Source: Sedimentisphaerales bacterium
Lineage (GTDB): Bacteria > Planctomycetota > Phycisphaerae > Sedimentisphaerales > SM23-30
DNA: 64,000 bases
Direction of reading: 5' to 3'
NCBI GenBank assembly: GCA_028281535.1
Contig: JANQJS010000022.1
Coordinates: 127,004-191,003, forward strand
Position numbers and translations under genes: made by a program. The notes beneath the pieces are model-generated. The model was not told the DNA's origin. It saw nothing but the letters and a program-made list of their open reading frames with translations, and did not search any database. Of this stretch, positions 7,951-24,083 are shown one piece after another; position 1 is the first letter of the stretch; each line of letters opens with the position of its first letter.

Positions 7951-9147
7951 TTAACTTTTTGGGCCAAAGGCATAGATGAACCCATCTTCACTTCCAATGA
8001 TAACCACACCTTGCGAAATGGCTGGCGAGGCTTTGATAGGTTGTCCAATTTCATAGGACCATAATAATTCACCACTAACCAGGTCAAGCATGTATAAACG
8101 ACCATCATCAGACCCAACCACGACTTTATCATCACAAATAATGGGTGAACTATCAATTTTACCACGCGTTTTATATTTCCATAGCTCACTACCGTCCAGT
8201 CGATTCAGGCAATAAACAATTCTGTCACGAGCACCAAACACGACACGTTCTCCATCAATTGCAGGCGAGGCGTAAACATCATGCTTTAATTTAAATGTCC
8301 AGACAATCTCCTGGGATTCGATATTAGCACAAATAAATTCTTTTCCATAGTGACCAATATATAGCAAGTCACCCAAAAAAGCTCCGGACCCAGCTATGTA
8401 ACTTCCTACGTCAATTCGTTGGATGGATTTGCCATCTTTGGCAGAAACGACATGGATAAATGAATCACAACCACCAAATACAATTCTCCCACGAGAGATC
8501 GCAGGTGTACCATTAATAAAATTATCTGTTTGATAGATCCATTTCATCTCACCGGTATCAGATGCGAGACAATGTAATCGGCTATCGTAACTACCAATAA
8601 GTAAATCTTTGGATTTTCCATCCTCATTTAAAATCCAATTGGCTGCTCCAAGAATTTTATCATCCGTTGAATATTTCCAAACAACCGCACCATCATCTTT
8701 ATTAAAGGCATATAAATTTCCATCACTACAACCAACATAGACCTTATCGTCTAACACTAATGGCGTTGATTCAATTTCATCTTCTGTTGTATATAGCCAT
8801 TTCTGCTGGCCTGAAACTAAATCTAACGCAACCACATTTCCATTAATACCACCAACATAAACAACCCCATCTGCTATAACTGCTGATGATAAAACCAAAT
8901 CACCTATTTCGTACTTCCATTTTAACGTAAGCTGCTGATCTAATTTACCATCCGCTTTGCCTAACAAAGATGGATTGCCACGAAACATAGGCCAATCATA
9001 ATACTTTGGTTTTGGTGGTTCGGTAACAACCTGGGCGGCAGGTTCGGTCTTTTCTTGAGTTGCAGGATCTGTTTTCTTATGACAGCCATAAAAAAACAAA
9101 CACAACGTTAACAAAAGAATAGAAATTATGTTAGATTTCTTTATCAA
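7951..9147 (-). CDS. PQQ-like (BamB-like) beta-propeller lipoprotein
   Basis: Lipobox-like 'LFFYGC', 'DWPMFRG' start of the mature domain, repeated 'A(L/F)DxxxGxxxW' blades. Confidence 0.8.
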   Translation of the reverse strand: MIKKSNIISILLLTLCLFFYGCHKKTDPATQEKTEPAAQVVTEPPKPKYYDWPMFRGNPSLLGKADGKLDQQLTLKWKYEIGDLVLSSAVIADGVVYVGGINGNVVALDLVSGQQKWLYTTEDEIESTPLVLDDKVYVGCSDGNLYAFNKDDGAVVWKYSTDDKILGAANWILNEDGKSKDLLIGSYDSRLHCLASDTGEMKWIYQTDNFINGTPAISRGRIVFGGCDSFIHVVSAKDGKSIQRIDVGSYIAGSGAFLGDLLYIGHYGKEFICANIESQEIVWTFKLKHDVYASPAIDGERVVFGARDRIVYCLNRLDGSELWKYKTRGKIDSSPIICDDKVVVGSDDGRLYMLDLVSGELLWSYEIGQPIKASPAISQGVVIIGSEDGFIYAFGPKS

Positions 9148-10429
9148 TTTTAATCCACCTTTTCGCTTTCATTTCGTATCGCGGCAAACTTCCTGACGAA
9201 ACTAATTGAACAGGTATTCTCAATAAAAACGTTTTTTGCAACTTCGCGGCTAACTCATCCACAATCTGTTCAGGTCGATCATGATTCTGATCAATTTCAA
9301 CTGAAATTAGTAGTTCAGACATATTTCTATTCTGCTGAAGCTCAACCTGATATTCAACAATGTCTTTGAACTGTCTGACGACAGATTCAATCGCTGCAGG
9401 ATATAAATTCACACCACGAACAAAAACCATATCATCTGTTCGGCCAATAATTCCACCTTCAAAGCCCATACGATGCGTTTTGCAACCCAAAGATTGATTA
9501 TCAACCAGTTTGACAATATCTCCAGTTCGATAACGAAAAAGAGGTGATCCTAGACGACCTAATGTCGTTAATACTAATTCACCAGTTTCTCCTACTTCTA
9601 CGTTTCTAAGAGATTCTGGTTCAATGACTTCAGCCAAATATTCTGGCTCAATAACTCGTAATACCCCCCTGTTTTCTGGGCACTCGTATGTTACAGGACC
9701 GACTTCTGTCATGCCATGATGATCATAGACCGTTGCCTGCCAAGCAGTCTCAATTTTTTCACGTGTTGCTGGAATGCTTGCCCCTGGTTCTCCAGCAACA
9801 ATTAATTTCTGGATGGACGTTTTACCAGGATCGATCCCTTCCTGTTGAGCCAGTTCAGCTAAACGCAGGGCATATGTAGGCGTGCAACAAAGTACCGTTG
9901 CTTGATGATCTTGGATCAATTTAAGTCGAGCTGAACTAGTAATGCCACCACCAGTCAAACACAAACACCCCATCTGCATTGCAGATTCAAATGCCAGCCA
10001 AAAACCTATAAACGGCCCAAATGAGAATGGAAATAGTATTCGATCTTTATACGACACGCCACTGGCAATATAGACTTCTTTCCAACAATCAACCATCCAT
10101 TGCCAACTTTGTGGCGTATCCAACCATCGCAAGGGTTCCCCCGTTGAACCACTGGTTTGGCAAAAACGACAGTATGCATCTAAATCAAGAAAAGAGGTTG
10201 TACCATAGGGAGGATTCAAAGTCTGATCTTGAATCAAATCCTGCTTGGTTGTAAAAGGCATCTTTGACTTAAACTCATCAAGACTTGCAATTGAAGAATC
10301 AAGCCCGGCTTGCTTGAGTTTATCGGTGTAAAACCCAGGATGTTCCAGACAAAAGCCGATGAGCTCTCTTAGCTTTTTTAACTGTTGAGCTTCAATCGCA
10401 TCTCTTGGGATATCATGGAATGCGGACAT
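9131..10429 (-). CDS. Phenylacetate-CoA ligase (PaaK)-family aryl-CoA ligase
   Basis: 'TSGSTGEP' P-loop, 'HGMTE', 'RYRTGD', 'GRTDDMVFVRGVNLYP', C-terminal 'KAKR'. Confidence 0.85.
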   Translation of the reverse strand: MSAFHDIPRDAIEAQQLKKLRELIGFCLEHPGFYTDKLKQAGLDSSIASLDEFKSKMPFTTKQDLIQDQTLNPPYGTTSFLDLDAYCRFCQTSGSTGEPLRWLDTPQSWQWMVDCWKEVYIASGVSYKDRILFPFSFGPFIGFWLAFESAMQMGCLCLTGGGITSSARLKLIQDHQATVLCCTPTYALRLAELAQQEGIDPGKTSIQKLIVAGEPGASIPATREKIETAWQATVYDHHGMTEVGPVTYECPENRGVLRVIEPEYLAEVIEPESLRNVEVGETGELVLTTLGRLGSPLFRYRTGDIVKLVDNQSLGCKTHRMGFEGGIIGRTDDMVFVRGVNLYPAAIESVVRQFKDIVEYQVELQQNRNMSELLISVEIDQNHDRPEQIVDELAAKLQKTFLLRIPVQLVSSGSLPRYEMKAKRWIKIDKEI

Positions 10430-10435
10430 GTCGGA

Positions 10436-10975
10436 CTATTTTTCCTGTTGAATAGTTGCTTCCACAGCGGGTTTTGCTGGCGGTCCACCAGGGCCTGGTT
10501 TAAATTTACTTACCAGGAATCCTCCTGTTGCCGCCATCATAATCCCTAAAATAAATTGCCATTTTAAACTTCCAAATCCACCTTGAGGAGGATGTAATGC
10601 TAAAGAAACAACGGCATTCACAACAGGTGCACCGGCAAAAATGATACTCATAACTACTGCAGGACTTCCTTTAGCACCAAATGCTAACAACACACCAAAA
10701 GCACCAATCGCACCGACGATTCCAGCCACTAATGACCAGAACATACCACCCCCTGTAAAACCACTCAGGGTTCCATTTTTCATAAGAATAGCTAATGGAG
10801 CAAGAACAGCTGTAATAAAGTAAGCAATTCCAACAAAGAGAAATGCTTTATAGCGACCATCTGGATCCCCCATCTGGACCTGGCCTTTATGAAGAAAAAT
10901 ACCATAAAGCCCCCATGAGGCTACTGTCAACAGTGCAAATACTAACCATAACGGCATGATTGCTCCTTTTTGCAT
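10436..10975 (-). CDS. Small ~5-TM membrane protein, DMT/EamA-like
   Basis: Five glycine-rich hydrophobic segments, N-terminal 'ASWGLYG' typical of DMT-like proteins. Confidence 0.55.
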   Translation of the reverse strand: MQKGAIMPLWLVFALLTVASWGLYGIFLHKGQVQMGDPDGRYKAFLFVGIAYFITAVLAPLAILMKNGTLSGFTGGGMFWSLVAGIVGAIGAFGVLLAFGAKGSPAVVMSIIFAGAPVVNAVVSLALHPPQGGFGSLKWQFILGIMMAATGGFLVSKFKPGPGGPPAKPAVEATIQQEK

Positions 10976-11005: not shown

Positions 11006-11437
11006 TTAAGCAACATCAATTTTATCCAAGATGTCATCAGGGATTTGAGCTGCCTTAAATTGGCCGTCGGCCTTATTATACGTGACATAAACTAATGTCA
11101 GCAAGCCTTTTGCTACATCTTTTTGTTCATCTTCATCATTCAATTTTGTAAAATGATATTCACACGAAATGGATTTTGAACGAATCTCTTTGATTTGCAT
11201 GTGGATTTCAAATTCTTCTTCAAATTTTAATGGAGAAAAATAATCACATTCCGCATGCACTCTGGGCCAACCTGCCGATTGCTTGCCATCATCAACATGT
11301 ACGGACAGTCCAATCGATCGAAAGAATTCATGCTCACAACTTTCCATATATTGGAAAAATTTGGAGAAATGAACAATCCCAGCCATATCTGTATCTGCAA
11401 ATTCTACTCGCCGTTTGACGCGATATTCACAGGCCAT
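11006..11437 (-). CDS. Acyl/aryl-CoA thioesterase, 4HBT/YbgC hot-dog family
   Basis: 'VEFADTDMAGIVHFSKF' catalytic motif, 143 aa. Confidence 0.85.
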   Translation of the reverse strand: MACEYRVKRRVEFADTDMAGIVHFSKFFQYMESCEHEFFRSIGLSVHVDDGKQSAGWPRVHAECDYFSPLKFEEEFEIHMQIKEIRSKSISCEYHFTKLNDEDEQKDVAKGLLTLVYVTYNKADGQFKAAQIPDDILDKIDVA

Positions 11438-11465: not shown

Positions 11466-12737
11466 TTACGGTTGACTTGCAGTATTCGATAACGATTTGC
11501 TGATAGGATAAGGTTCTGGCAACTGGGCAAATTCCCCAATCGCTCCAAACAGCTTATCAAAATCCCGATAAACATCACCAATCAGACAATGGGTAACATC
11601 AGATCGTAAATCAGGGTATTTGTCAAATAATTTACGCCAGTTGAAGGTCTCATCATAAAATGAAAATACCAGATTTCTCATGGCACCAATACCGCGACAA
11701 ATCGTCTCGCCATAAGCTTCAAAGTTTTCGCCACGAACATCCTTTTTCTCCAGTGCCATGTGGGCTGCATCTCCAGCCATTTCGCCCCCTTTCAATGCAA
11801 GAAAGACACCCGACGAAAAAACGGGATCTAAAAAGGCAAAGGCATCCCCAGTCAGTATCAAACCATCTGTAGCACAGTACTTAGAGCGGTAAGAAAAATC
11901 GCCCGTCACTTTAAATTCTTCAATTCTTTCACCAGTGCTTAAATGGTCTTTAATCCATACATTTTTTTCAACTTCTCGTTCGAAAATCGCTTGAAGATCT
12001 CGTTGCTCGTCTGAATAAAGATAATTTCGATCAGCAACAATACCTACACTTATAATATCATTAGGAAGTGGTATGTACCAGAACCATCCCTTTTCAGGAA
12101 CATATGCAACCGTTGTTGCACCTTCATCATACCCTTCATCACGTTTGGCTCCTTTAAAATAGGACCAAATAGCGACTTTATCTAAACGTTTATCACGAAT
12201 TCGCCAGTCTTTCTTACAAGCGGTAAAGCCAGTTCGACCACTGGCATCGATTGTAATAGGTGCATGAAATTCGTATTGTCCGCCATGATTATCCGTCGCT
12301 TTTACGCCAGCGATCGCATCATCCTGATTAACAATAAAATCTTCTGCTGTTATTTTCTCAAATATCTGAGCGCCCTTTTCTTCGCTATGACCCAATAGCA
12401 TTGAATCAAATTCGCTACGAACCACTTGCCAAGTCATTGAAGCTTCATGTTCAAAATGCTTAAAGAAATAAAACGGCGCAGAGACTTTCCCGTTCATACT
12501 AACAAATTGAACAGAATATTTCTTAGTAAAACTGGAGGCTTTCATCTTCTCAATAAAGCCGATACGTTCTAAAGGAAAGTAGCAGAAAGGCAATAATGAT
12601 TCACCGATCGAATAACGAGGAAATGGTTGTTTTTCCAAGACAACAACATCTCTGCCATGATCGGCTAAAACACTTGCGGCCATAGCCCCTGCAGGGCCAC
12701 CACCTATAACAACGACATCACTTTGATAAATTTTCAT
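11466..12737 (-). CDS. FAD-dependent oxidoreductase of the flavin-dependent halogenase family
   Basis: GGGPAG, 'PRYSIGESL', conserved-Lys region 'FTKKY', 'IDASGR', WxWxIP ('WFWYIP'), 'GDAFAFLDPVFSSGV'. Start moved to ATG 12737, which has GAGGTG upstream. Confidence 0.75.
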   Translation of the reverse strand: MKIYQSDVVVIGGGPAGAMAASVLADHGRDVVVLEKQPFPRYSIGESLLPFCYFPLERIGFIEKMKASSFTKKYSVQFVSMNGKVSAPFYFFKHFEHEASMTWQVVRSEFDSMLLGHSEEKGAQIFEKITAEDFIVNQDDAIAGVKATDNHGGQYEFHAPITIDASGRTGFTACKKDWRIRDKRLDKVAIWSYFKGAKRDEGYDEGATTVAYVPEKGWFWYIPLPNDIISVGIVADRNYLYSDEQRDLQAIFEREVEKNVWIKDHLSTGERIEEFKVTGDFSYRSKYCATDGLILTGDAFAFLDPVFSSGVFLALKGGEMAGDAAHMALEKKDVRGENFEAYGETICRGIGAMRNLVFSFYDETFNWRKLFDKYPDLRSDVTHCLIGDVYRDFDKLFGAIGEFAQLPEPYPISKSLSNTASQP

Positions 12738-12745
12738 AGCACACC

Positions 12746-13333
12746 TCAATGTTCATCTTGCAAATTTGGTAAAATTTCGATGATTTGTGCCAACGGTTTA
12801 TTATCCATAGGATCTAATAAAACATTCTGCCTGCCATACAACCAAGAGCCTTCAGGCACTTTCAACAATCCACTTATTTCATGAACTGCTTTGATCCTGA
12901 AAAAGGTTTGTGGCTGACTAACAAATGAAATATTAAATTTCCGGAGAATCGCTCCAAGCGGCACTTTACTATCAAGAATATATGCCTGTGCCTCTTCAGT
13001 AAATTTATCTAAAAATATATGTATCGCACCATACTCCGTAACAACATTTGATTTTTCACCTATCAATAATACGGAACGCGTCAATATTTGGTTTTCTATT
13101 TTTTTGTCAAGTAACTGCAATTTCAATTCATCAGAAAAATACTTTTCTAATGTTGATGTCATATCATTATCATGAACCAATAACCCCGCATAGGGTTCTG
13201 GTACATTCTCTGGAACAAGTGCTTCAATGTCCAAAACATCAAAAAGGTGTTTAAAATCGTTTAAAAATTCTAAAACAGTTTCTTTGTTCATATTGCGGTT
13301 ATGTTTAAATGGTATACTAGGCATATCGTACAT
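12746..13333 (-). CDS. Chorismate-pyruvate lyase (UbiC/DUF98)-like protein
   Basis: 'LLVHDNDMTSTLE', 'TRSVLL', 'VPLGAIL', 'YGRQ', 'IIEIL' match the layout of the chorismate-lyase fold. The real start may be ATG 13291. Confidence 0.6.
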   Translation of the reverse strand: MYDMPSIPFKHNRNMNKETVLEFLNDFKHLFDVLDIEALVPENVPEPYAGLLVHDNDMTSTLEKYFSDELKLQLLDKKIENQILTRSVLLIGEKSNVVTEYGAIHIFLDKFTEEAQAYILDSKVPLGAILRKFNISFVSQPQTFFRIKAVHEISGLLKVPEGSWLYGRQNVLLDPMDNKPLAQIIEILPNLQDEH

Positions 13334-14651
13334 TCTTATGCTCGGGCAGGAAAAACGCAGTTAACAACCGATCAACCTGCAATAATCCCAATCGGCTAAA
13401 TTGTATTTCTCCATCCTGAATCGACAGGTAGCCATCCTGCTGATATTGCTCAAATATCTCACCAAAACGCTGGATCAGGTTTTGGCCAAATTTTTTCTCA
13501 AAGTATTCAACCGCAACATGGCCTAATTTACACTGCAATACAAATTCACGTATAAACCGCTCATCATCGGTTGGGGTCAATGCACGATAGACAGGCAATT
13601 CACCTTTCGTCACTCTGGTTAAATAGGTATCTAAATCATGTTCATTTTGAAAATGTGTGCCATTAACATGTGAAAACGAAGCAACACCCAAAGAAACAAG
13701 ATCTGCACCTTCCCAAAGTCGATCACGATATAAAAATTTCACTTTATCAGGATCTTTAACGACCGTGTAAGCACTATTTACAGCATACCCATTCTCTTGA
13801 AATTTATTAAACGCATAATCAACCCAGTCACGCTTGGTTTGCCAATCAGCAACCGGGGCAATATCCTCATGCTTTTCTTTCATTTCCTTGTAGATAGTTG
13901 TATTGTAGGGAATTTCCATCTGATAGACGGTTAAAGCATCCGGCTGCATTTCTAGTGCTTTATCCACACATTCTTTCCAATTTGTTTCTGTTTCACCCAT
14001 CATACCAGCAATTAGATCGATATTGATATGATCGAAACCTAATTTTCTCGCAAAATCATAGGCTTTAAAAACCTCTTTAGAACGATGCGCCCGGCCATTA
14101 TATTCTAAAATCTCATCTTTAAAATTTTCCACCCCTAAACTTAGTCGAGTTACACCAATTTCTTTTATAACTTCCAGCTTACTTTCTGTTAACGTCCCCG
14201 GCTCACACTCAAAAGCGACTTCTTTAGCTTGATCCCAAGGCAAATATTCTTTCAAGCGATCTGTTAAAGATTTCAACTGGGTTGTTGACAGGAACGAAGG
14301 CGTGCCGCCCCCAAAATAGATAAACTCAGGCCTTCGCCCATTTACAAAAGGTTTATCAGCATACATCTTCATTTCATTAACCACGCCATCAAGTGTGGTA
14401 TTGACTTGCGAAGAATTGACGCCTGTATAAACCCTGAAATAACAAAAATGACAGCGTTTACGACAAAATGGAATATGCACATAGAGTCCCAGTGGCGTCT
14501 GTGGATCACCCTGATGCTCTAAGGCTCGCTGAACATCCACAACGTTATCAGGCGACCAGAAAGAAAAAGGAGGATAATTGGATATAAAATAATTTCCTAC
14601 CTGAGTTTTTTCTTGTACAGCCTGGTTATCTGTCTTTGGTATATCAGACAT
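13317..14651 (-). CDS. HemN-like (class C) radical SAM enzyme
   Basis: 'LYVHIPFCRKRCHFC' CxxxCxxC, 'YFGGGTPS', 'RLSLGV', 'NIDLIAG', HemN-like C-terminal domain. Confidence 0.85.
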   Translation of the reverse strand: MSDIPKTDNQAVQEKTQVGNYFISNYPPFSFWSPDNVVDVQRALEHQGDPQTPLGLYVHIPFCRKRCHFCYFRVYTGVNSSQVNTTLDGVVNEMKMYADKPFVNGRRPEFIYFGGGTPSFLSTTQLKSLTDRLKEYLPWDQAKEVAFECEPGTLTESKLEVIKEIGVTRLSLGVENFKDEILEYNGRAHRSKEVFKAYDFARKLGFDHINIDLIAGMMGETETNWKECVDKALEMQPDALTVYQMEIPYNTTIYKEMKEKHEDIAPVADWQTKRDWVDYAFNKFQENGYAVNSAYTVVKDPDKVKFLYRDRLWEGADLVSLGVASFSHVNGTHFQNEHDLDTYLTRVTKGELPVYRALTPTDDERFIREFVLQCKLGHVAVEYFEKKFGQNLIQRFGEIFEQYQQDGYLSIQDGEIQFSRLGLLQVDRLLTAFFLPEHKNVRYA

Positions 14652-15864
14652 TCGTTTTACTCTTTACACTTTTATTTTCTATTGTTTTTTCGTCACAAAA
14701 AGAAAATGCACTTTTATACATTAATTCAAAATCAATTGTTGAAACGTCTATTGGATTATGTGTTCCGGTCCATTGCTTTGAAGCATCTTCTGCTAATACA
14801 GATACATTATCACGTTTGGCACCATATTCTTCCAGACACCTGGGCAACTCACAGATTTCAAGTATGGTCTCAAAAAAGGTAATTAATTTCTCTAAAGCCT
14901 TATCATCAGAATCTGAAGAGCTTGCCAAACCAGCATAGCGAGTCAACGATGCATACTCTTTCAATAATTGCGAATCTTTCGCATTATACTGAATCACTAA
15001 AGGTAGCATTAACCCTACGGCCTGGCCATGAACAACATCATAATGAGCGGTTAGCGGATTTGCCATAGCATGAGCGGCACCTAGCATACTATTCTCGATC
15101 GCAATTCCGGCATATGCAGCACCCAATTGCATCTTAGCTCTTGCCTCCAAGTTATTGGGGTCTTTTAATACTTTTATAAAATGATTGGCTGTTAAACAAA
15201 AGGACTCTCTGGAAAACATACAAGAAAGGTGATTTCTTGTTTTTGTGACCGCAGCCTCCACAGCATGCGTCATCGCATCGATTCCGGTTGAAATCGTCAC
15301 AAGCCTTGGCTGGGTTAATGTTAATTCAGGTTCCAATATAGCAACTTTTGCCGCAGCTTTCAGATCACCACACGCCATTTTTTGATGTGTTTTTTCATCT
15401 GATATTAATGCATACTTCTGGCATTCACTACCTGTACCCGCAGTCGTTGGAATAGCGACTAAAGGAAGCATTGGCTTAGAGGCTTTACCGACCCCCCAAT
15501 AATCTTGCATTTGACCGCCATTGGTATAAATAAAATTACATCCCTTTGCAGCATCTAAACTGCTGCCACCACCTAAACCAATAATTAAATCGATATTCTC
15601 AGATTGTGCTAATTTTACACATTCATCGACAATACCTGTTGTAGGATTTTCTTTCACTTGATCAAAAATGGCATAGGTCAATCCAGCCGTCTTGAGTAAA
15701 TCGGTCACCCGGTCGACATGGCCTGCCTGAACTACGCCCTGATCTGTAACGATAAGGATATGATTGCCGCCAAGCTCCTTACAAATGTCACCCACCTGAA
15801 GGAGACTTCCTTGCCCAAACAAAAGGCGCGTTTTTGGTTGATAATCTATTTGATCGGGTAGCAT
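14644..15864 (-). CDS. Iron-containing (group III) alcohol dehydrogenase
   Basis: 'GGGSSLDAAKG', 'PTTAGTGSE', 'DAMTHAVE', 'HAMA...HG' metal ligands. Confidence 0.9.
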   Translation of the reverse strand: MLPDQIDYQPKTRLLFGQGSLLQVGDICKELGGNHILIVTDQGVVQAGHVDRVTDLLKTAGLTYAIFDQVKENPTTGIVDECVKLAQSENIDLIIGLGGGSSLDAAKGCNFIYTNGGQMQDYWGVGKASKPMLPLVAIPTTAGTGSECQKYALISDEKTHQKMACGDLKAAAKVAILEPELTLTQPRLVTISTGIDAMTHAVEAAVTKTRNHLSCMFSRESFCLTANHFIKVLKDPNNLEARAKMQLGAAYAGIAIENSMLGAAHAMANPLTAHYDVVHGQAVGLMLPLVIQYNAKDSQLLKEYASLTRYAGLASSSDSDDKALEKLITFFETILEICELPRCLEEYGAKRDNVSVLAEDASKQWTGTHNPIDVSTIDFELMYKSAFSFCDEKTIENKSVKSKTNV

Positions 15865-15889
15865 AGGTTTTCCTTGCGTGGATAAGCCG

Positions 15890-17350
15890 TTATGATTGAC
15901 TGCGTTGAATGGAACGACGTCGATATAAAAATTCGAAAAGATTACCTTCGTGGGGCTGATCCCATTCTACATGATTCGTCGGAACAGGCCCAAGATTCAA
16001 TCGGTCTATATGACTACATGATAGTAAATCACGAATAAATTTTTCATCATGCGTAATCGCACTAACAACGAGAGAGTCACCAATTTTATCAAGTACATCA
16101 GATTGAGGCACCTCGGCCACAGTCACAAATGGAAATAGAAATTCTTTATTAAAAAGCGGATGCTCTACTGAATCACAATAGACGATTGTCGGGAGCATCA
16201 AACTGCGTCCATCAACTTCTACGCGACGCTGGCAATCTCGATAATTTGCTGATAACTCTTGAGCACCTGCCGTTTCTAAACCATCATCAATCATGGCATC
16301 AATGTAATCTGCCATTTTAGGATTTGCAAATGCACTCAATGTCGCATTTGGATCATCTTCACTGGTTGCTTTTATATCGGCAAACTTCTTTGCCACCGCT
16401 TCCGATATTTCCTTAGCATATTTTGGCACAACCACAGCGGATGCATTTATACAGCTGCGCCCCCCATTAGCCACGACACTTTCCACAATAATGTCGATAT
16501 ATTTTTCCCAATTTTCAATTTCATCATCACCGATGATCACCTTGCTCCATCCAGGACCATGGACCTGCACACCAGGATTACCTGCATATTTTTCTACCGT
16601 CGATACATCACCAAAAATTAAGGCACGATCACAAATATCCATGATCGTCCCACTGCCTTCATGACTGGTTGGATAGAAAGAAAAAGCTTCAGGAGGAAAT
16701 CCAGCTTTAATAAATGAATGAATAATTCGCAATGGCGTCCATGGCTCTTCACGACCTGGTTTTAAGATCACAGGCACTTTAAGAACCAATGAAGGCATCC
16801 AAAGAGAATTCACCCCCGGCGAATTACTTGGAAGCACAACACCTAACGCTTGGGTGACAGGAAAGAAACTAACATTGACACCACCTTGCTGTCCATAGCC
16901 ATTATCAATAATACTCAAATCCATCCCACGCGTTAAACCAGCAAGGATCTGCTCCATCTCGGTAAAGACCTGATAGATTTTGGCCATATTACGTTTGATC
17001 AAAGCATAAGGCAAACCACTCGTAGCAGAGAGCGAGTCCATATAATCCTGAGGACCTTGAGGCTTGCCACCTTCAAACATTGACACTTCACCATTCATAA
17101 ATATTTCACCGGCTTCTTTACTCATCTTAAGTAAATCCGCCGATGGAATTTCCTGAAGTACCGAATAAGCCTTATGTATTTTTCGAAAATCGCGTCGAAT
17201 CAATCCCGCATTAGCCTGACTGATTTCTACCAGTTTTTCTTCGCTACCCAAACGGGTAATCTCTGTTTTTTCTAAACTGGTATAGGCCTTCCCTTGTCGT
17301 AAGACTGGGATATGTGGCAGTTCAACCTGTACACTTGAGTCTGACATCAC
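15890..17350 (-). CDS. Aldehyde-dehydrogenase-superfamily reductase, GriD/EhpG/LuxC-like
   Basis: 'VLPSNSPGV', 'ILKPG', 'HGPGWSK', catalytic Cys in 'GGRSCINAS', 'EFLFPF', C-terminal 'PHEGNLFEFLY'. Confidence 0.75.
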   Translation of the reverse strand: MMSDSSVQVELPHIPVLRQGKAYTSLEKTEITRLGSEEKLVEISQANAGLIRRDFRKIHKAYSVLQEIPSADLLKMSKEAGEIFMNGEVSMFEGGKPQGPQDYMDSLSATSGLPYALIKRNMAKIYQVFTEMEQILAGLTRGMDLSIIDNGYGQQGGVNVSFFPVTQALGVVLPSNSPGVNSLWMPSLVLKVPVILKPGREEPWTPLRIIHSFIKAGFPPEAFSFYPTSHEGSGTIMDICDRALIFGDVSTVEKYAGNPGVQVHGPGWSKVIIGDDEIENWEKYIDIIVESVVANGGRSCINASAVVVPKYAKEISEAVAKKFADIKATSEDDPNATLSAFANPKMADYIDAMIDDGLETAGAQELSANYRDCQRRVEVDGRSLMLPTIVYCDSVEHPLFNKEFLFPFVTVAEVPQSDVLDKIGDSLVVSAITHDEKFIRDLLSCSHIDRLNLGPVPTNHVEWDQPHEGNLFEFLYRRRSIQRSQS

Positions 17351-17365
17351 TTTGTTCCTTTACGA

Positions 17366-18454
17366 TTAATAGACACCTTCTACGATTTTCTTTTCGCTCG
17401 CACCAAACGGCCGAACATCTCCCACTCCATCCCAGGGATAAAGCCTACAAGGTTTACGTCTGACAGCCTCATCCCGTTCAAGAAATCGAGGCATAAATAG
17501 TTCTTTTGTTAGTGTTGTTAACTCTACACGTCCTATTTCGCCATATTCAACCACATTCTCGGTATGCTTTGGATCAACCACACGGGTAAATGCCCTTGGC
17601 TGAGGTGGATAATAGGAAATAGAGAAATTATCTTCAGGCTCTAAAGGCTTACTACTGGCAAGTCCCATAAGTGTATTACCATAGATAGGCACAAATGAGA
17701 TTTCATTTTCCAAAAGCTCTTCAATCATAAATCGAACATCCTGAGGCGACATCGATGTGCCGGCACAAAAGACCGCTTTGATATCGGTGTCATCTATAAT
17801 AGAAACACGTTCGCATAATGCTTCGAGTAATTTAGGTGTGGTAAAAAGAGCATCAACTTTACGATGCTTTAAAATCGTTTCCGTTTGGTCAATGACATGC
17901 TCCATATAAGCTTTCGCTTGATCGAACTGTTTGCGTTCAATCAGTTTTTTCACCCAACGAGCATCCATATCAATAAAGTAGCAGCTGCACTTGCGTTGAT
18001 GTGCAAGATACTCGATAGATAAACGCAAACGACGTGGACCTGTTGGCCCCATCATCAGCCAGTAACCACCTGGAGGAAATGCTTTGTCGTCAAGCGTCTT
18101 AGCATAATCATAGTAATCTGTTTCGTAGTCTTCCCAACCGATGCGCTGCTTAGGCATCCCGGTGGTTCCACCTGTTTCAAAAACAGTGAAAGGTTTACCT
18201 TCATAGGCCTTAGGCACCCAACGTTCAGGTTGTTCAAAACGCAACCAATCATCTTGAAAATGATCAAATTTCAAAAGATCACTTGCTGATTGAACATCTT
18301 TGAGTGGATCAAAATTAGCCTTGCTGGCCCAATCCAACCAGAAAGGGGTTCCCGTTTCGGGAGAAAAATGCCACTGGATGATTTCACGAACCCTCGCATC
18401 CAGCGCGTCACTCGCTGCCTGTAAGGCAGTTTCTTCAACTAAATCAGTACTCAT
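17366..18454 (-). CDS. Short adenylate-forming (ANL) enzyme, GriC/EhpF-like
   Basis: 'WHFSPETGTPFWL..FDP', P-loop 'ETGGTTGMPK', 'YGNT', 'ERD'. 362 aa, lacking the usual C-terminal lid length. Confidence 0.7.
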   Translation of the reverse strand: MSTDLVEETALQAASDALDARVREIIQWHFSPETGTPFWLDWASKANFDPLKDVQSASDLLKFDHFQDDWLRFEQPERWVPKAYEGKPFTVFETGGTTGMPKQRIGWEDYETDYYDYAKTLDDKAFPPGGYWLMMGPTGPRRLRLSIEYLAHQRKCSCYFIDMDARWVKKLIERKQFDQAKAYMEHVIDQTETILKHRKVDALFTTPKLLEALCERVSIIDDTDIKAVFCAGTSMSPQDVRFMIEELLENEISFVPIYGNTLMGLASSKPLEPEDNFSISYYPPQPRAFTRVVDPKHTENVVEYGEIGRVELTTLTKELFMPRFLERDEAVRRKPCRLYPWDGVGDVRPFGASEKKIVEGVY

Positions 18455-18472: not shown

Positions 18473-19978
18473 TTATTTTGATGCTGGAAAAAACTTTTTA
18501 ATAACGTCATCCGGCATTGGTTTAGTCATCAACGAAATCACCACCAATGAAATCGCAGACACGGCGAAAATAAAAGTTACTGGCATCATTTCAGCGACTA
18601 AACCTTCACTTTTGCCATAACCACTTCTTTGAAAAAAGTAAAACCAGGCAATGATCGTTAAAATCACACTGCCTATCGCGCCAGCTGTTGTTACACGCTT
18701 CCAATAAACCGAGGCTAACACCAATGGAAACAAACTGGCAAAACCACTAAAACACCATACACCTAAATCAAATACTTTACGAGGTTCTAAGAGCGACAAT
18801 AAATATGTGATCAATACGATAAAAACGATAAACCCACGACCGATCCACACCTTCTGCTGATCACTAAATTTGTCTTCACCATAGGCATGCAGAACAATAT
18901 CATTTGTGAACATACTACCAATGCAAACGAATTGGGAATCAAGTGAAGACATAATGGCTGCTAATATACCAGCGGTAACTAATCCAACTAAATAGGGATT
19001 TGAAACAAGTTTTTTTACCATAACAGCCAAAACGGCATTGGGAGGAGATTTGATCTCCGCACCAACAGCCCAAATACCAATCAATATGCAGGGCACCCAA
19101 ACAATCATAATAAATATAGGATGGGCAATCACCGTTAATCGAAATGTTTTAGCGCTTTTTGCGGTAAGCCAATGCTGGAACAAGTGAGGAAACATGCCTA
19201 CAGATAATGGAACAAAAAAGTAAGTCAAAAACTCTCGTTTATGAATCATACCTTCACGCATCAAGTGCTTTGGCGACACTTCAGCAACTTTTTGAGACGC
19301 TGCTTCCAACCCACCCAATGCTTTTGCAATTAATACAAAAATAATCACACCTGTCGTCATAAAAACCAACGTCTGAAAGGTATTAGCCCATGCTGCTCCA
19401 CGTACACCACCATAAAAAACATAGTATAGTACAACGGAACAAATGACCAAACCAGTTAACCATTTTGGTACAGCACCCGCTGTGTCGGTGAACGTTTCAG
19501 GAAACATACCTTTGGTAACTCCACCAATGACCGAACCAGCGCCCAGTAATCCAATGAGCAAATAAGGAATTACCAATCCAACAAGAATCGGAAAAAGCAA
19601 ATATCCTAGAAAGTTTGATTGAAATCGATCACGGAAATATTGGATCTGAGTAACATAACCGTAACGCTTACCCATCGCCCAAAGTTTGATTCCTACTAAA
19701 AAGAAAATCGCTGAGTGCACCAACCCAGACGACGAAGCCATCAATCCATAAACACCAATGCCCTTCTGGAATGCTTTTCCGGTACTACCAACCAAAGCGA
19801 AAGCCGTCATTGTCGTACCGAACACGCTCATCAATAATAAAAAGGGGCCAATCGATCGACTGGCGACAAAATAATCCTGGCTGGTGCCTCGAAATAAACG
19901 AGAACTCAAAACACCTAAACCAAGCAACAAGCACATATACCCAATGATTACATAAAGTGGTATATAACTGACTTCCAT
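18473..19978 (-). CDS. Sodium:solute symporter (SSS) family transporter
   Basis: 'DYFVASRSIG', 'GGVRGAAW', 'AAIMSSLDSQ', ~13 TM helices. Confidence 0.9.
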   Translation of the reverse strand: MEVSYIPLYVIIGYMCLLLGLGVLSSRLFRGTSQDYFVASRSIGPFLLLMSVFGTTMTAFALVGSTGKAFQKGIGVYGLMASSSGLVHSAIFFLVGIKLWAMGKRYGYVTQIQYFRDRFQSNFLGYLLFPILVGLVIPYLLIGLLGAGSVIGGVTKGMFPETFTDTAGAVPKWLTGLVICSVVLYYVFYGGVRGAAWANTFQTLVFMTTGVIIFVLIAKALGGLEAASQKVAEVSPKHLMREGMIHKREFLTYFFVPLSVGMFPHLFQHWLTAKSAKTFRLTVIAHPIFIMIVWVPCILIGIWAVGAEIKSPPNAVLAVMVKKLVSNPYLVGLVTAGILAAIMSSLDSQFVCIGSMFTNDIVLHAYGEDKFSDQQKVWIGRGFIVFIVLITYLLSLLEPRKVFDLGVWCFSGFASLFPLVLASVYWKRVTTAGAIGSVILTIIAWFYFFQRSGYGKSEGLVAEMMPVTFIFAVSAISLVVISLMTKPMPDDVIKKFFPASK

Positions 19979-20208
19979 TAGCTCTTCTCACTTTCTTCGA
20001 CTTCGTCGGCCCATTTTTCTAATTCATGTGGCCAGGCAAATTTTAGAGCACAAGCCCACAAGCATGCCGCGGCGATCGAGAAAGTGGCGTGATAAGCTAA
20101 TCCTTTCGGCATAAAACCAAATACCAGCCCTGGGTCATCCCAGAGCCAAACATCCTGATGAAGGACGAATAACACAATACAACCTATCCAGATAATTTTT
20201 TTACCCAT
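19978..20208 (-). CDS. DUF3311-like small membrane protein (SSS partner)
   Basis: 76 aa, two TMs, 'LHQDVWLW..VFGFMP'. Translationally coupled to the SSS gene by a TAATG overlap. Confidence 0.75.
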   Translation of the reverse strand: MGKKIIWIGCIVLFVLHQDVWLWDDPGLVFGFMPKGLAYHATFSIAAACLWACALKFAWPHELEKWADEVEESEKS

Positions 20209-20220
20209 GAGGGCGATCCC

Positions 20221-21768
20221 TTACTTCTTCTTATCAGGTTTGCCAATCGCATACAAATGCGTTTGGGTGGTAATATATAAAACATCATTAGCCACAACCG
20301 CACTGGAATAAACCGGTGCTCCCATATCCATCTTTTTGATTTCTTTCATTTTCTTGTCGGCTGCCAAAACAACGATTTCGCCATCTTCATTACCGATGAT
20401 TACTTTACCATCCGCAACTAATGTCGAAGCCCAGATAGAACTTTGTGTATCATAGACCCAATATTTTTTACCCGTTTCAGCATCTACGCAATGAACACGG
20501 CCGGTATAATCAGCCGCAAAAACCAATCCGTTATAAATCGAAACAGTAGAAATGGTTCTTTCAATATCTTTGTATAGCCAAACAGCTCCCGTTTTTGAAA
20601 TATCTCCATCCTTAGTAGCATCGATGCAACTTAAAACTCCAACGCCTTCACCGTGCTCAGGGTCCTGGCCCGTTGCAACATAAATGCGATTTTTGTAAAA
20701 AACAGGCGTTGCGATAATTTCACTGGGTCCTTTACGCTTTGGATACTTAATCTTTTTACCATTCTTCATGAGATACTCTGGTGGATTACAGTTAAATCGC
20801 CAGATTTCTTTGAGGATATCATAGCCATCTTCTTTAACGGGTTTTGGATCAAATCCATAGCAATAGCCATCACCGCCACCAAAGAAAAGCATCTCCTGGC
20901 CATTGACCACACCAAATGCGGGTGAAGACCAATTGCAATGATATAGTCGAGTACTAATACCTGAAGCTTCTTCACCAACAAGTTTACCTGTTTTTGCATC
21001 CAGACAAATTAATGTGGGAGCACGAGGACTTGGGATATTTACGTGAGACCAATCTTGACCATTTGAGGTCGTTACATAAATCTTACCATCGTAAGCTAAA
21101 ATAGAACTACTTGCGATATTGTGCGGAAAAACACCTAACTCTTTACGCATATCGTAGGTCCAAATGATATCAGCATCTTTATCGCCGACTTCAAGTTTTG
21201 GTTTACCTTCACCAACAACATATTGCCCTTCATCTTTAAACGGCCCATCATTACCATTGGCCATCCCTTTAACGTCCATACAAACCACTTCACATCGATT
21301 CGTTACCACATAAACGCGGTCACCTAAAACCGTTGGAGAGCTGCAAATCCCTAGATATTCCCAGTCGCTGACTTTTCCCGCACCAAGCTTAGGAACAATC
21401 AACTGCCATTTGAAGGAACCATCTTTTTCATCAAAACACATGACCACACCTCGGTCGCCTTTATGTTTTGGATCGCGAGGAGATTCATTGTTCGTACCAA
21501 CATAAACCTGGCCATCAGCAACGGTGACATTGCCGTAAGATTGCGAGCCCATTTTGGCGATCCACTTAATATTCTTTGTGGTTTTCATGTCCACTTCTTC
21601 AGTGTCATAATCCATCTCACCCACATTAAAACTATCAACGATTTTTTCCGTCGATGAAGCCATGTTTTTTGAATAGTCACGCCCCCACTGCGGCCAGTCT
21701 TCAGCTTGCAAACTAGCAGTAAAAGCTAACATTATTATTGCGATGATTCGTTGTTTCATAGTATTCAT
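20221..21768 (-). CDS. Secreted PQQ-like beta-propeller protein
   Basis: Signal peptide ending 'SLQA', 'DWPQWG', repeated 'CxDxxxGxxxW' blades. Confidence 0.8.
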   Translation of the reverse strand: MNTMKQRIIAIIMLAFTASLQAEDWPQWGRDYSKNMASSTEKIVDSFNVGEMDYDTEEVDMKTTKNIKWIAKMGSQSYGNVTVADGQVYVGTNNESPRDPKHKGDRGVVMCFDEKDGSFKWQLIVPKLGAGKVSDWEYLGICSSPTVLGDRVYVVTNRCEVVCMDVKGMANGNDGPFKDEGQYVVGEGKPKLEVGDKDADIIWTYDMRKELGVFPHNIASSSILAYDGKIYVTTSNGQDWSHVNIPSPRAPTLICLDAKTGKLVGEEASGISTRLYHCNWSSPAFGVVNGQEMLFFGGGDGYCYGFDPKPVKEDGYDILKEIWRFNCNPPEYLMKNGKKIKYPKRKGPSEIIATPVFYKNRIYVATGQDPEHGEGVGVLSCIDATKDGDISKTGAVWLYKDIERTISTVSIYNGLVFAADYTGRVHCVDAETGKKYWVYDTQSSIWASTLVADGKVIIGNEDGEIVVLAADKKMKEIKKMDMGAPVYSSAVVANDVLYITTQTHLYAIGKPDKKK

Positions 21769-21797: not shown

Positions 21798-24083
21798 TTA
21801 CTTACTTTTAGTGACAGAAACATTATCAACAAACACTTTAAATTGACTTTGCGGTGAAAAACCAATCAAGCCTGGCGCCCCCACTTTATGGGCAATCTTA
21901 TGGGGAACTTCAATCGTCCACTCTTTGGGCTCTGGATCACTACGTTTCCATGCCTTGGCACGAACCACACCACTACCATCGTCATTTAAATCAACGCGTG
22001 TCTTAATTCGATACCACACATTTTCACGCCATGAGAAGGGAACAGAGACTTTGATTCGATCATGATTACTGCTGACTTCCAGTTGCTGCCAATTACCAAT
22101 CAAGGCTACAATATAACGCTGATTAATCACACCAACATTTGACATCATACGACGGTTGCCGTCAGTCATGACATCTGCTTCGACGGTATAGCCAGTTGAA
22201 TCCGGATGCCCGATGAATGTCAAAGCACGTTGAAATAAAACACGATCCAGTGTTTTAGCTAAGACCTTGTTACCTTCAAGCTCACGAATTTCCCATTTGA
22301 GCCGTCCACCAATCCAAGATAATGGAGGATAAGAAAATTTTCCGCCATCACTTTTAGCGGTCACATTCAAATCAAATGATTCAAAATCTTCAGAAAATGG
22401 CATTTCGGGAACAACACGTCCGCGAATCACACCCGTTAAATTATCCGCAGTTGCTTTAAACGCTCCTGCAGATGGATCATTACCAGAATCAATGACCAAG
22501 GTTCCTTTATCATTGAAATCACCTTTTAGTTTTGATTTCACTTTAGCTGTCGCAGGAATGAATTTTTCCCAAGAGGCATCATCACTAGCCATAGTATCTG
22601 CAAGGAATCCGTTGCTGTCTAGAACATTGATTTTGAAATCTTGTTTTGTGTTAGGTGTTAAAAGAACTTCATTTGGAACTATTTGTAATCGAGCGGGCTT
22701 ACCAGCTTTATCATATCGTTTTTCTGTGGAACCTTTAACAAGACCAGGGTTATCGCCTGCTTTACCAAAGCAATAAAGTTTTTCAGTTGAATGCACATAG
22801 ACTTTACCATTCCAAGCACTTGGGGAGCCAAGACCATTACCTTCTAATTGAATTTTCGTTAATACCTCAATACCAGTATCACCAGGTTTAACAATATAGA
22901 ACAAGCCGTTTTTCATTGGAATGTAAAGCTTGCCATCAGCGTATAATGGCGAAGCATGCAACTGAGCATTTGACAGTTTTTCTTTCCAGACAACTTTGCC
23001 GCTATTGACATCAATGCAATACAAATCTCCTGTCTGCACAACTTGATATACTTTATCGCCAACCAGGACAGGGGAACTCGTAAACATACACAATGGCAAA
23101 CGCCATAATTCAGAATTAACATCCAATACTTTCTGCTTTTTACCATCTAAATCTTCTGTGCCATTTAAAGACAACGCAATCATACGACCGATCTCAGAGT
23201 TATCTAAATTTTCTCTGCCATGAATAACAATTAACTTATCGTCATGTTTTACGATTGAAGAATTGACGCCACCGTACGAATAATGATATCGCCACAATGG
23301 TTCACCAGTGCGAGCATTGACGCAAACAACATTACCGCAACCCGTTCCAGCATAAAAAACGCGTTTGCCGCCATACCATGCCATGATAGGTGTGGAAAAA
23401 GAACTATCTTTGGGAGCCGTTCCAGGTGTACTACGCCAAACCAACTCACCCGTGATTTTATCAAAAGCATAAAAGCGATCTCGCGCGGGCCCTTCTTTAC
23501 CCCAGTTGGCGGTAATGCCACGAACAATGACTAAATCATCATCGATAATCACCGCACCTGTTCGACCATTGGGAAATGTCAATCGACCAAATTTTTCCAT
23601 CATGGATATGGTCCACAACTGTTTTCCATCTGGATTAAAACAAGCAAATTCACCGCAGGTTGTTGATACGTAAATATTTCCCGTTTCACGATCAACAGTT
23701 GGACTACCGATAGCGTATCGCAGATAAATGATATCACTTAAATAATCGTTGAACCCAAACTCCCAAATCGTTTTACCCGTTTCAGCATCTGCACAAAGTA
23801 AGATCTCTTGAAGATCGGGTCCTTCACCTCGATAGCCCATCGTGTATAATCGACCATTAGCAATCACCGGCGTGCCGCGACCTGAAAGGTCGACCGACCA
23901 TAAGTGATTCTTACCATCAATTTCAACTTCACTGACAAGCCCTGTTTCACGTGAAACACCTGTTTGTTCAGGACCTCGCCAATTAAGCCAGCCATCGATA
24001 CTTGCCAGGGCTGTTTGAGCTGTCAGGGTTAATAGTAAACCAAACGATATAAAAAATGATTTATTCCGCATGATGGGCTTCAC
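21798..24083 (-). CDS. Secreted PQQ-like beta-propeller with Ig-like linker and C-terminal concanavalin-A-like (DUF1080-like) domain
   Basis: Signal peptide, 'WLNWRGP', propeller blades to ~aa 440, then 'RLQIVPNEV', and 'FSEDFE..YTVEADV..WYRIK..VFVDNVSV' beta-sandwich. Confidence 0.75.
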   Translation of the reverse strand: MKPIMRNKSFFISFGLLLTLTAQTALASIDGWLNWRGPEQTGVSRETGLVSEVEIDGKNHLWSVDLSGRGTPVIANGRLYTMGYRGEGPDLQEILLCADAETGKTIWEFGFNDYLSDIIYLRYAIGSPTVDRETGNIYVSTTCGEFACFNPDGKQLWTISMMEKFGRLTFPNGRTGAVIIDDDLVIVRGITANWGKEGPARDRFYAFDKITGELVWRSTPGTAPKDSSFSTPIMAWYGGKRVFYAGTGCGNVVCVNARTGEPLWRYHYSYGGVNSSIVKHDDKLIVIHGRENLDNSEIGRMIALSLNGTEDLDGKKQKVLDVNSELWRLPLCMFTSSPVLVGDKVYQVVQTGDLYCIDVNSGKVVWKEKLSNAQLHASPLYADGKLYIPMKNGLFYIVKPGDTGIEVLTKIQLEGNGLGSPSAWNGKVYVHSTEKLYCFGKAGDNPGLVKGSTEKRYDKAGKPARLQIVPNEVLLTPNTKQDFKINVLDSNGFLADTMASDDASWEKFIPATAKVKSKLKGDFNDKGTLVIDSGNDPSAGAFKATADNLTGVIRGRVVPEMPFSEDFESFDLNVTAKSDGGKFSYPPLSWIGGRLKWEIRELEGNKVLAKTLDRVLFQRALTFIGHPDSTGYTVEADVMTDGNRRMMSNVGVINQRYIVALIGNWQQLEVSSNHDRIKVSVPFSWRENVWYRIKTRVDLNDDGSGVVRAKAWKRSDPEPKEWTIEVPHKIAHKVGAPGLIGFSPQSQFKVFVDNVSVTKSK

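Follow-up and report, generated by a model that had tools for sequence, protein, structure and literature searches.

To our knowledge, very few pathways are known to use a two-protein carboxylate reductase, and GriC/GriD is the only such pair to have been assayed. The closest known systems are GriC/GriD of grixazone biosynthesis in Streptomyces griseus and EhpF/EhpG of the D-alanylgriseoluteic acid phenazine cluster of Pantoea agglomerans, the latter with three EhpF structures (3l2k, 3hgu and 3hgv); EhpF and EhpG reportedly reduce one carboxyl group of phenazine-1,6-dicarboxylate. In the available part of the respective sources, EhpF to EhpO are described to convert phenazine-1,6-dicarboxylate to the final antibiotic (PMC3175449), and GriC to form the acyl-AMP of 3-amino-4-hydroxybenzoate (3,4-AHBA), which GriD reduces to the aldehyde (PMC10179220). 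Here we analyse a locus of this kind in a 64,000-nt stretch of contig JANQJS010000022.1 of a Sedimentisphaerales bacterium (the window; positions are those of the whole stretch). Exactly three minus-strand open reading frames (ORFs) fill positions 14644-18454 (Table 1), with gaps of 15 nt between the first two and 25 nt between the last two: ANL362, an EhpF-like adenylating enzyme of the ANL type, ALDH486, an aldehyde dehydrogenase (ALDH)-like protein, and FeADH406, an iron alcohol dehydrogenase (Fe-ADH). The in silico evidence supports reading the trio as an acid-to-aldehyde-to-alcohol module, and it is rather likely that it works as a split carboxylate reductase, followed by an alcohol dehydrogenase, on a 4-hydroxybenzoate-type acid made by the same operon.

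The original prediction had named a GriC/GriD (EhpF/EhpG)-like pair followed by an Fe-ADH, and it described this part of the locus correctly. The motifs that it quoted are present in the translations ('WHFSPETGTPFWL' and ETGGTTGMPK in ANL362, GGRSCINAS in ALDH486), the order along transcription is ANL, ALDH, Fe-ADH, ANL362 is of the EhpF type, ALDH486 groups with EhpG-type partners, and the surroundings hold no phenazine or grixazone genes. It had also treated the trio as a free-standing module, and here it has to be revised, the trio being instead one part of a conserved operon of roughly 22 kb.

The sequence of ANL362 supports its assignment as a putative EhpF-type ANL enzyme that lacks the C-terminal domain. 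Its residues 19-362 match residues 21-366 of the 366 of EhpF in the PDB (3l2k/3hgu; E 5.6e-46), and the C-terminus coincides with the end of EhpF. Pfam AMP-binding covers only its N-terminal domain, with 28.5 bits, just below the cut-off of 29.9, and no AMP-binding_C domain was found in it by Pfam, whereas PaaK432, encoded a few genes further on, carries such a domain. An alignment of 39 orthologues showed TGGTTGMPK (T94-K102, the P-loop), YGNT (Y258-T261) and ERD (E326-D328) to be invariant; we take these to be the adenylation motifs called P-loop, YGxT and the Asp of A7. A plasmid collection contained 29 records of related proteins, with 31-36% identity, in ehp clusters of Pantoea agglomerans, in Streptomyces and Burkholderia, in a phenazine plasmid of Escherichia coli, and in two haloarchaea, those of Streptomyces being annotated as 'arylcarboxylate reductase' or 'phenazine biosynthesis protein'. 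In the ANL tree, 15 sequences of the Planctomycetes-Verrucomicrobia-Chlamydiae (PVC) type fall together, with support 84/88, apart from the group of EhpF and the actinomycete proteins.

Other identities were rejected. A phenylacetate-CoA ligase of the PaaK type is at odds with an NCBIfam score of 14.8 bits against a cut-off of 700, with the missing C-terminal domain, and with a branch of length 10 for the N-domain of true PaaK in the ANL tree. A single-chain carboxylic acid reductase (CAR) with adenylation, thiolation and reduction domains (A-T-R) would show a carrier domain or a terminal reductase of the short-chain dehydrogenase/reductase (SDR) type, and Pfam detected neither in any protein of the trio. 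The comparison with LuxE and LuxC that the original prediction had called for gave no match: LuxE (presumably PF04443) was not matched by ANL362 even at E≤10, and at that threshold Pfam returned for ALDH486 only Aldedh, not LuxC (presumably PF05893). No NCBIfam model reached its cut-off with ANL362, ALDH486 or FeADH406.

EhpF-like ANL domains are also found in larger proteins. In P0132, P0133 and P0135 they are fused C-terminally either to a class III aminotransferase (Streptomyces fradiae, 22 member sequences) or to Zn-dependent alcohol dehydrogenases (4 and 10 members). Fusion to families with aldehyde-using members makes it likely that the partners act on the aldehyde product, and suggests acid-to-amine and acid-to-alcohol variants of the same logic. 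Apparent fusions of the types ANL-ALDH-FeADH, symporter-ANL and propeller-ANL in ENA (P0121-P0131) had patchy matches with missing stretches, are probably frameshifted assemblies, and were not used.

ALDH486 is above the Pfam Aldedh cut-off (61.4 bits against 23), with a match that starts only at residue 164. It is 27% identical to Pantoea EhpG (E 9e-40) and, over nearly its full length, 26% identical to the ALDH adjoining a Streptomyces homologue of ANL362 (E 8e-39), and the best ordinary ALDH in the PDB reached only E 5e-7. Clustering with ordinary oxidative ALDHs was looked for, and the tree split the EhpG-like and PVC proteins, ALDH486 included, from three ordinary ALDHs of the same genome with support 100/100. 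The catalytic Cys (Cys300 in ALDH486) is kept in 23 of 23 aligned rows. On the other hand, the Glu of the ELGG motif, present in the three ordinary ALDHs of the genome (3/3), is replaced in all 20 EhpG-like rows: by His in 15 of 15 PVC rows (His264 in ALDH486, where the stretch reads HGPGWSK), and by Gln, Arg, Leu or Tyr in the others. This Glu is the general base of ALDHs, which activates the water that hydrolyses the thioester; its loss with retention of the Cys therefore fits an enzyme in which an acyl group is taken over and reduced rather than released as the acid.

FeADH406 matches Pfam Fe-ADH (177.4 bits) and ADH_Fe_C (118.3 bits). Its best PDB match is the NAD-dependent methanol dehydrogenase 8zrl (E 5.7e-63), followed by ZmADH2, DhaT and FucO, and its GIDAMTHAVEA and HAMAN...VVHG stretches align with the corresponding motifs of 8zrl. 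Since these Asp/His motifs are, as we assume, those that hold the metal ligands in solved Fe-ADHs, FeADH406 should be catalytically competent, as judged from its sequence.

The pairing of the ANL and ALDH genes was studied in the best 80 of 258 stretches that encode an ANL relative in a data set with one genome per species (hereafter related loci). Of the 58 related loci with at least 2.7 kb of DNA fetched downstream of the ANL gene, 41 include an ALDH relative there, in most cases as the next gene, and an Fe-ADH relative is present in 39 of 54. In five of five genomes in which the ALDH gene is not adjacent to the ANL gene, an ALDH orthologue (42-54% identity) is located elsewhere. Insertions of 430-1100 bp separate the ANL and ALDH genes in 10 of 38 loci (L002, L050, L046, L080 and six more). 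The idea of a conserved small gene or subunit at this place was discarded, the ORFs of the inserts being mutually unrelated save for two similar pairs; the inserts give the impression of selfish or incidental DNA that has entered a junction otherwise kept tight.

Among the plasmid contexts, the ALDH gene directly follows the ANL gene in five of six (Pantoea, Streptomyces, E. coli, Burkholderia and Halalkalicoccus). In the sixth, a plasmid of Streptomyces sp. Mut1 (L082, 5938-13020), the gene annotated as 'arylcarboxylate reductase' directly precedes a type I polyketide synthase and not an ALDH, so some EhpF-like ANL enzymes may hand the acyl group to other acceptors. Plasmid 2 of Halalkalicoccus jeotgali (L092, 3511-7569) carries a sodium:solute symporter, an EhpF-like ANL and an ALDH in this order, with an SDR and an IclR regulator nearby; the link between symporter and reductase is thus older and wider than the PVC operon.

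A complex of ANL362 and ALDH486 was predicted from alignments that we made ourselves, with a score, which expresses the confidence of the model, of 0.70 (0.67, 0.71 and 0.70 in the individual runs) against 0.36 for the best control; this mark is reached by 116 of 157 solved complexes and by 2 of 215 mismatched pairs. The runs share at least 83% of their contacts, and the pLDDT of the partners is at least 88. The predicted interface comprises residues 211, 215, 236-239, 241-242, 246-247 and 276-277 of ANL362 and residues 25-27, 45, 47, 49-50 and 52-53 of ALDH486, and it overlaps invariant or nearly invariant columns in both proteins. The model thus supports binding of ANL362 to ALDH486. PDB sequence searches returned EhpF chains only, with no comparable complex among them.

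The ANL family has at least 8000 members in protein databases. The best 120 relatives listed, the protein itself aside, are 65-75% identical to it and come from metagenome-assembled genomes (MAGs) labelled Verrucomicrobiota or Planctomycetota; identities range between 60 and 75% when these 120 and the related loci are taken together. The related loci belong to Verrucomicrobiota, Planctomycetota, Kiritimatiellia, Omnitrophota and a few MAGs with other labels, and gene order is mostly kept across them. With this number of relatives, the identity among the best 120 and the presence of the ALDH in 41 of 58 loci, the trio lies far beyond what chance would bring together.

Co-occurrence was analysed in a sample of 301 genomes of the phylum, that of the window included (G000), counting as orthologues ANL proteins of at least 49% identity and radical SAM proteins with E≤1e-90. 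ANL orthologues are found in 56 of the genomes, radical SAM orthologues in the identical 56, and neither in the other 245, even though in several complete genomes the two genes are megabases apart. Relatives of Unk195, the chorismate-lyase-fold protein of the operon, occur in 41 of the 301 genomes, all of them within the 56 ANL carriers, and proteins similar to PQQ515 in 64, including all 56 carriers. The six other sampled genomes of the window's own order yielded no ANL gene. Labels of different phyla are interleaved in the trees, where for instance sequences of Kiritimatiellia and Phycisphaerales are sisters at 100/99. A core housekeeping cluster of the PVC group can be dismissed with the ANL in only 56 of 301 genomes and in none of those six; because of this absence and of the interleaved phyla, the cluster is accessory and probably mobile among these phyla. 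A distant second subfamily of EhpF-like proteins (31-35% identity to ANL362) was found, with no radical SAM orthologue, in nine genomes of the phylum sample (family f37; G032, G087, G132, G151, G169, G186, G219, G235 and G266).

The trio belongs to a same-strand array of about 17 genes on the minus strand, with small gaps or overlaps, that runs from 24083 to at least 2626, perhaps 1897, beneath a divergent MarR gene (Table 1). A sigma-70-like site (24283-24255, minus strand, 11 of 12 matches) faces the operon; such sites are no commoner in the window than in shuffled sequence. Rfam gave no riboswitch match in positions 1-30000, and the search for sequencing runs holding the stretch listed no RNA run, the sole run being one of DNA, possibly the source sample. 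Two exported propellers open the array. A relative of PQQ761 is present in 41 of 52 related loci; its C-terminal 312 residues (21801-22736), for which neither a Pfam family nor a PDB match by profile was found, are 44-59% identical in 38 of the 41 matching loci and 30-34% in the other three, and by eye they resemble an Ig-like stretch with a jelly-roll or lectin-like domain after it. A relative of PQQ515 is present in 48 of 62 related loci. A role of the propellers as pyrroloquinoline quinone (PQQ) enzymes was rejected, the PDB profile search having given only generic propeller/BamB repeats.

Downstream of the trio, rSAM444 scores below the cut-offs of the NCBIfam models hemN, HutW and HemW. 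Unk195 has no Pfam family; its AlphaFold2 (AF2) model (pLDDT 88) shows a chorismate-lyase/UTRA fold, with AF1396 (DUF98) as the best Foldseek match (E 2.4e-8, TM 0.77-0.81), E. coli UbiC (1fw9/1g1b) also matching, and the families Chor_lyase and Rv2949c-like are represented among its neighbours in the atlas. The ten best PDB matches of Hal427 include nine named halogenases (among them 8zop, E 8.8e-54, ChlB4, CmlS, PltA, Bmp2-type and RadH), with whose solved structures its GWFWYIPL stretch and the Lys of FTKKYS align; these we take to be the halogenase motifs, the first known as WxWxIP. The BamB-like gene, which here comes after the PaaK-like gene, is located between the Fe-ADH and radical SAM genes in most related loci. 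The latter also have a separate glycosyltransferase family 4 (GT4) gene of about 430 codons, between halogenase and thioesterase, and a separate ATPase of about 240 aa, so that the single 666-aa ORF of the window arose either by rearrangement and genuine fusion or as an artefact of assembly. The permease follows the ATPase in L016, L030 and L036, and the two are a probable exporter. Just upstream of the MarR gene, the minus strand codes at 24868-26148, 26530-27762 and 28052-29917 for two more exported PQQ-like propellers and for a fusion of VKOR with thioredoxin (621 aa); a few related loci likewise have PQQ410-like genes upstream.

Table 1. Genes of the array and its divergent regulator, in order of transcription of the minus strand
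Feature	Position	Strand	Basis
MarR-family regulator, divergent at the head of the array	24336..24815	+	Pfam MarR, E 7.6e-15
PQQ761, exported propeller that opens the array; its C-terminal 312 aa belong to no known family	21798..24083	-	Pfam; signal-peptide-like N-terminus
PQQ515, exported PQQ-like/BamB-like beta-propeller	20221..21768	-	Pfam PQQ_2; signal-peptide-like N-terminus
DUF3311 small membrane protein (76 aa), start-coupled to the symporter	19978..20208	-	PF11755, 30.3 bits (cut-off 30)
SSF501, sodium:solute symporter	18473..19978	-	Pfam SSF, E 8e-39; nearest NCBIfam PanF and PutP, below cut-offs
ANL362, putative EhpF/GriC-type adenylating enzyme without the C-terminal ANL subdomain	17366..18454	-	362 aa; EhpF match
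ALDH486, putative EhpG/GriD-type ALDH-like reductase partner	15890..17350	-	486 aa, GTG start; EhpG match
FeADH406, group III iron alcohol dehydrogenase	14644..15864	-	406 aa; Pfam Fe-ADH and ADH_Fe_C
rSAM444, HemN-like radical SAM enzyme	13317..14651	-	Pfam Radical_SAM; CRKRCHFC and GGGTP motifs; overlaps the Fe-ADH stop by 8 nt
Unk195, chorismate-lyase-fold (DUF98/UbiC-like) protein	12746..13333	-	195 aa; AF2 and Foldseek
Hal427, flavin-dependent halogenase	11466..12749	-	PDB matches
TE143, 4HBT-family thioesterase	11006..11437	-	Pfam 4HBT_2 and 4HBT
Eam179, small EamA-like membrane protein	10436..10975	-	weak Pfam EamA; 55-67% identical in 11 related loci
PaaK432, PaaK/FlxY-like aryl-acid CoA ligase with C-terminal domain	9131..10429	-	Pfam AMP-binding and AMP-binding_C_2; NCBIfam PaaK and FlxY below cut-offs
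BamB398, BamB-like propeller	7951..9147	-	signal-peptide-like N-terminus; lipobox-like Cys
GT4 glycosyltransferase-ABC ATPase fusion	5930..7930	-	one 666-aa ORF
FtsX-type permease, 1109 aa	2626..5955	-	follows the ATPase in L016, L030 and L036

According to the scheme that we propose, ANL362 and ALDH486 would act together as a two-protein EhpF/EhpG (GriC/GriD)-type carboxylate reductase that uses ATP and NAD(P)H and dispenses with a phosphopantetheine carrier. ANL362 would adenylate the carboxylic acid; ALDH486, docked on it through its divergent N-terminal region, would take the acyl group on Cys300 as a thioester, from which hydride transfer from NAD(P)H would free the aldehyde, and FeADH406 would reduce the latter to the primary alcohol. 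The acid would most likely be of the 4-hydroxybenzoate type, produced from chorismate by Unk195. In this genome Hal427 would probably halogenate it, and rSAM444, the HemN-like enzyme, might modify it; uptake through the DUF3311/SSF symporter could be an alternative source. The resulting hydroxybenzyl alcohol or aldehyde might then be glycosylated by the GT4 enzyme and exported by the ABC/FtsX system to the envelope, where the exported propellers reside, these last two steps being guesses from gene content. A (halo)hydroxybenzoate is the probable substrate because of the neighbours in the operon and of the joint presence of the ANL and radical SAM genes in the same 56 genomes. Compared with the original prediction, the acid-to-aldehyde-to-alcohol module has behind it the homologies, the residue pattern, the conserved pairing of its genes and the complex model, and the benzoate substrate has the context of a chorismate-lyase fold, a flavin halogenase, a 4HBT thioesterase and a PaaK-like ligase; the reductive direction, the aryl substrate and its class, the order of steps, the benzyl alcohol product and everything after it are what we infer.

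Several observations weigh against this scheme. The PVC clade has a support of only 84/88 in the ANL tree. The likeness to GriC/GriD is one of description, the sequence proxy being the Streptomyces 'arylcarboxylate reductase' homologues (31-35%). In seven related loci, including L011, L013, L014, L052, L057 and L074, the ANL gene is directly followed by the Fe-ADH gene with no ALDH gene between them, and the complex model, whose score is a model confidence, leaves the reach from Cys300 to the adenylate undemonstrated. Fe-ADHs are reversible. The co-occurrence counts include related, non-independent genomes, so that their statistical weight is overstated. The weightiest objection lies in the gene content of the carriers, in many of which the halogenase, and possibly the lyase, is dispensable: Unk195 as a query retrieved no relative from 15 of the 56 carrier genomes, and many related loci lack the halogenase (12 of 39). 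A halogenated hydroxybenzoate made by the cell itself can therefore not be the substrate everywhere. Moreover, many a locus of Verrucomicrobia consists only of propellers, in some cases the symporter, and the ANL, ALDH and Fe-ADH genes, between unrelated flanks and with no 4-hydroxybenzoate genes nearby, and the position of the symporter beside the ANL, also in a haloarchaeon, points equally to an imported acid. As a separate observation on the loci with no intervening ALDH gene, the one genome tested, that of L013, has a more divergent ALDH orthologue (43%) elsewhere.

It could be, then, that the trio serves the salvage or uptake of an acid unrelated to 4-hydroxybenzoate, either aliphatic or another aromatic, which the DUF3311/SSF proteins would import and the trio reduce, with the lyase and the halogenase belonging to a separate branch. 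This we consider unlikely but a serious alternative, and it accounts for a good deal: the symporter gene lies immediately upstream of the ANL gene here, in 30 of 69 related loci, always adjoining it where present, and in Halalkalicoccus, in which no chorismate-lyase, halogenase or radical SAM gene is annotated within 5 kb of the trio, and both the loci reduced to propellers, symporter and trio and the carriers for which no Unk195 was found would be expected. It does not account for the presence of the ANL and radical SAM genes together in 56 of 56 carriers and in none of the 245 other genomes. Besides, the genomes with minimal loci carry a radical SAM orthologue (57-60% identical) elsewhere in five of five cases, and where its surroundings were fetched (4/4: G301, G302, G304 and G305) it has beside it a BamB-like and a chorismate-lyase-fold gene, with or without a halogenase or GT4 gene. 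Five of the six contexts outside the PVC group are found amid genes for aromatic acids, phenazines or polyketides, Halalkalicoccus being the one with no such annotated neighbours.

A more speculative possibility, to which we give little credence, is that the operon makes not a secondary metabolite but a hydroxybenzyl-type periplasmic cofactor or covalent handle for its three to five exported PQQ-like propellers, which the ABC/FtsX system would export, the spent acid being recovered by the DUF3311/SSF proteins and recycled to the alcohol by the trio. If true, bacteria without the PQQ and mycofactocin pathways would possess a functional counterpart of them.

Reversal of the whole module, with the Fe-ADH and the ALDH turning an alcohol into an acid that the ANL enzyme activates for further metabolism, appears very improbable. 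The reversibility of Fe-ADHs, the score of ALDH486 above the Aldedh cut-off, and the presence of a CoA ligase and a thioesterase in the operon would agree with it. GriC/GriD, the relative with described biochemistry, is reductive according to the available part of PMC10179220. The Glu needed for release of the free acid is gone in all clade members (20 of 20), the C-terminal domain that is used in the thioester-forming half-reaction is absent from the ANL, and the gene order is ANL, ALDH, ADH. The least probable of all is a fatty-acid reductase making fatty aldehydes or alcohols for envelope lipids, for, in spite of sizes (362 and 486 aa) and an order that resemble what we take to be those of LuxE/LuxC, and of a GT4 enzyme, an ABC/FtsX exporter and envelope proteins in the operon, the Pfam models of LuxE and LuxC remain unmatched, the nearest structure and the annotated relatives are of the EhpF type, most of them in aromatic pathways, and the array contains no LuxD-like acyl-transferase or fatty-acid genes.

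A split carboxylate reductase acting on an aromatic acid would have implications beyond this locus. The clade comprises at least 8000 database sequences and 258 or more species and is highly conserved, and in the literature searched, from which subscription journals were largely left out, no description of the operon or of the clade was found. The pathway would be an orphan one present in 56 of 301 genomes of one phylum and recurring in others, in an operon that links chorismate-derived, sometimes halogenated, aromatic chemistry with exported propellers. The identity of its product would show the role of a conserved cluster in widespread environmental bacteria, and could reveal a common natural source of halogenated phenolics. 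If the enzymes work as proposed, with no need of phosphopantetheinylation, they would be attractive for acid-to-aldehyde or acid-to-alcohol biocatalysis.

The single-chain CARs of Nocardia and Mycobacterium catalyse the same net reaction, in which an aryl or alkyl acid is reduced to the aldehyde at the expense of ATP and NAD(P)H. Unlike them, the proteins described here have neither a PP-binding carrier domain nor an SDR-type terminal reductase, the thiol being the Cys of the ALDH fold, and a phosphopantetheinyl transferase would be unneeded. LuxE and LuxC pair an acyl-activating enzyme with a reductase of the ALDH superfamily that acts via an acyl-Cys intermediate; the trio differs from them in having no detectable match to their Pfam models. 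With regard to the neighbours of the trio, an adjacent pair of a lyase-like protein and a halogenase is also formed, we believe, by Bmp6/Bmp5 of Pseudoalteromonas. In the available part of 10.1101/723874, the adjacent chorismate-lyase-like and halogenase pair BaaA/BaaB of Planctomycetales strain 10988 is proposed, without genetic proof, for 3,5-dibromo-p-anisic acid, a proposal also mentioned in the accessible part of PMC12078418. Unk195 and Hal427 are similarly adjacent on one strand, a likeness of description and not of sequence, and, unlike the two-gene proposal as given in those parts, the pair is located here between the radical SAM gene and the thioesterase and ligase genes, beside the reductase trio.

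With GriC/GriD, the trio shares the two-protein logic of an AMP-binding protein and an ALDH-like one, as described in the available part of PMC10179220, and it differs in that no 3,4-AHBA genes of the GriH/GriI type are present, the likely precursor route being through chorismate lyase and not through aspartate-semialdehyde. The likeness to EhpF/EhpG extends to the sequences: ANL362 aligns with EhpF from end to end, lacks the same C-terminal domain and is 30.9% identical by tblastn to the copies on Pantoea plasmids, ALDH486 has, like EhpG, kept the Cys and lost the Glu, and the two genes are adjacent and in the same order as in Pantoea. Both clusters also contain an oxidoreductase of an alcohol-forming type, an SDR in Pantoea and an Fe-ADH here. 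On the other hand, there are no phenazine core genes in the present operon, which has, unlike the Pantoea cluster, exported propellers, a symporter, a radical SAM enzyme and an exporter; the PVC proteins form a clade of their own, and at the position of the former Glu they have an invariant His where EhpG has Gln. The clade thus differs from both EhpF/EhpG and GriC/GriD in its own sequence group, its invariant His, its Fe-ADH partner and, above all, the operon in which it is found.

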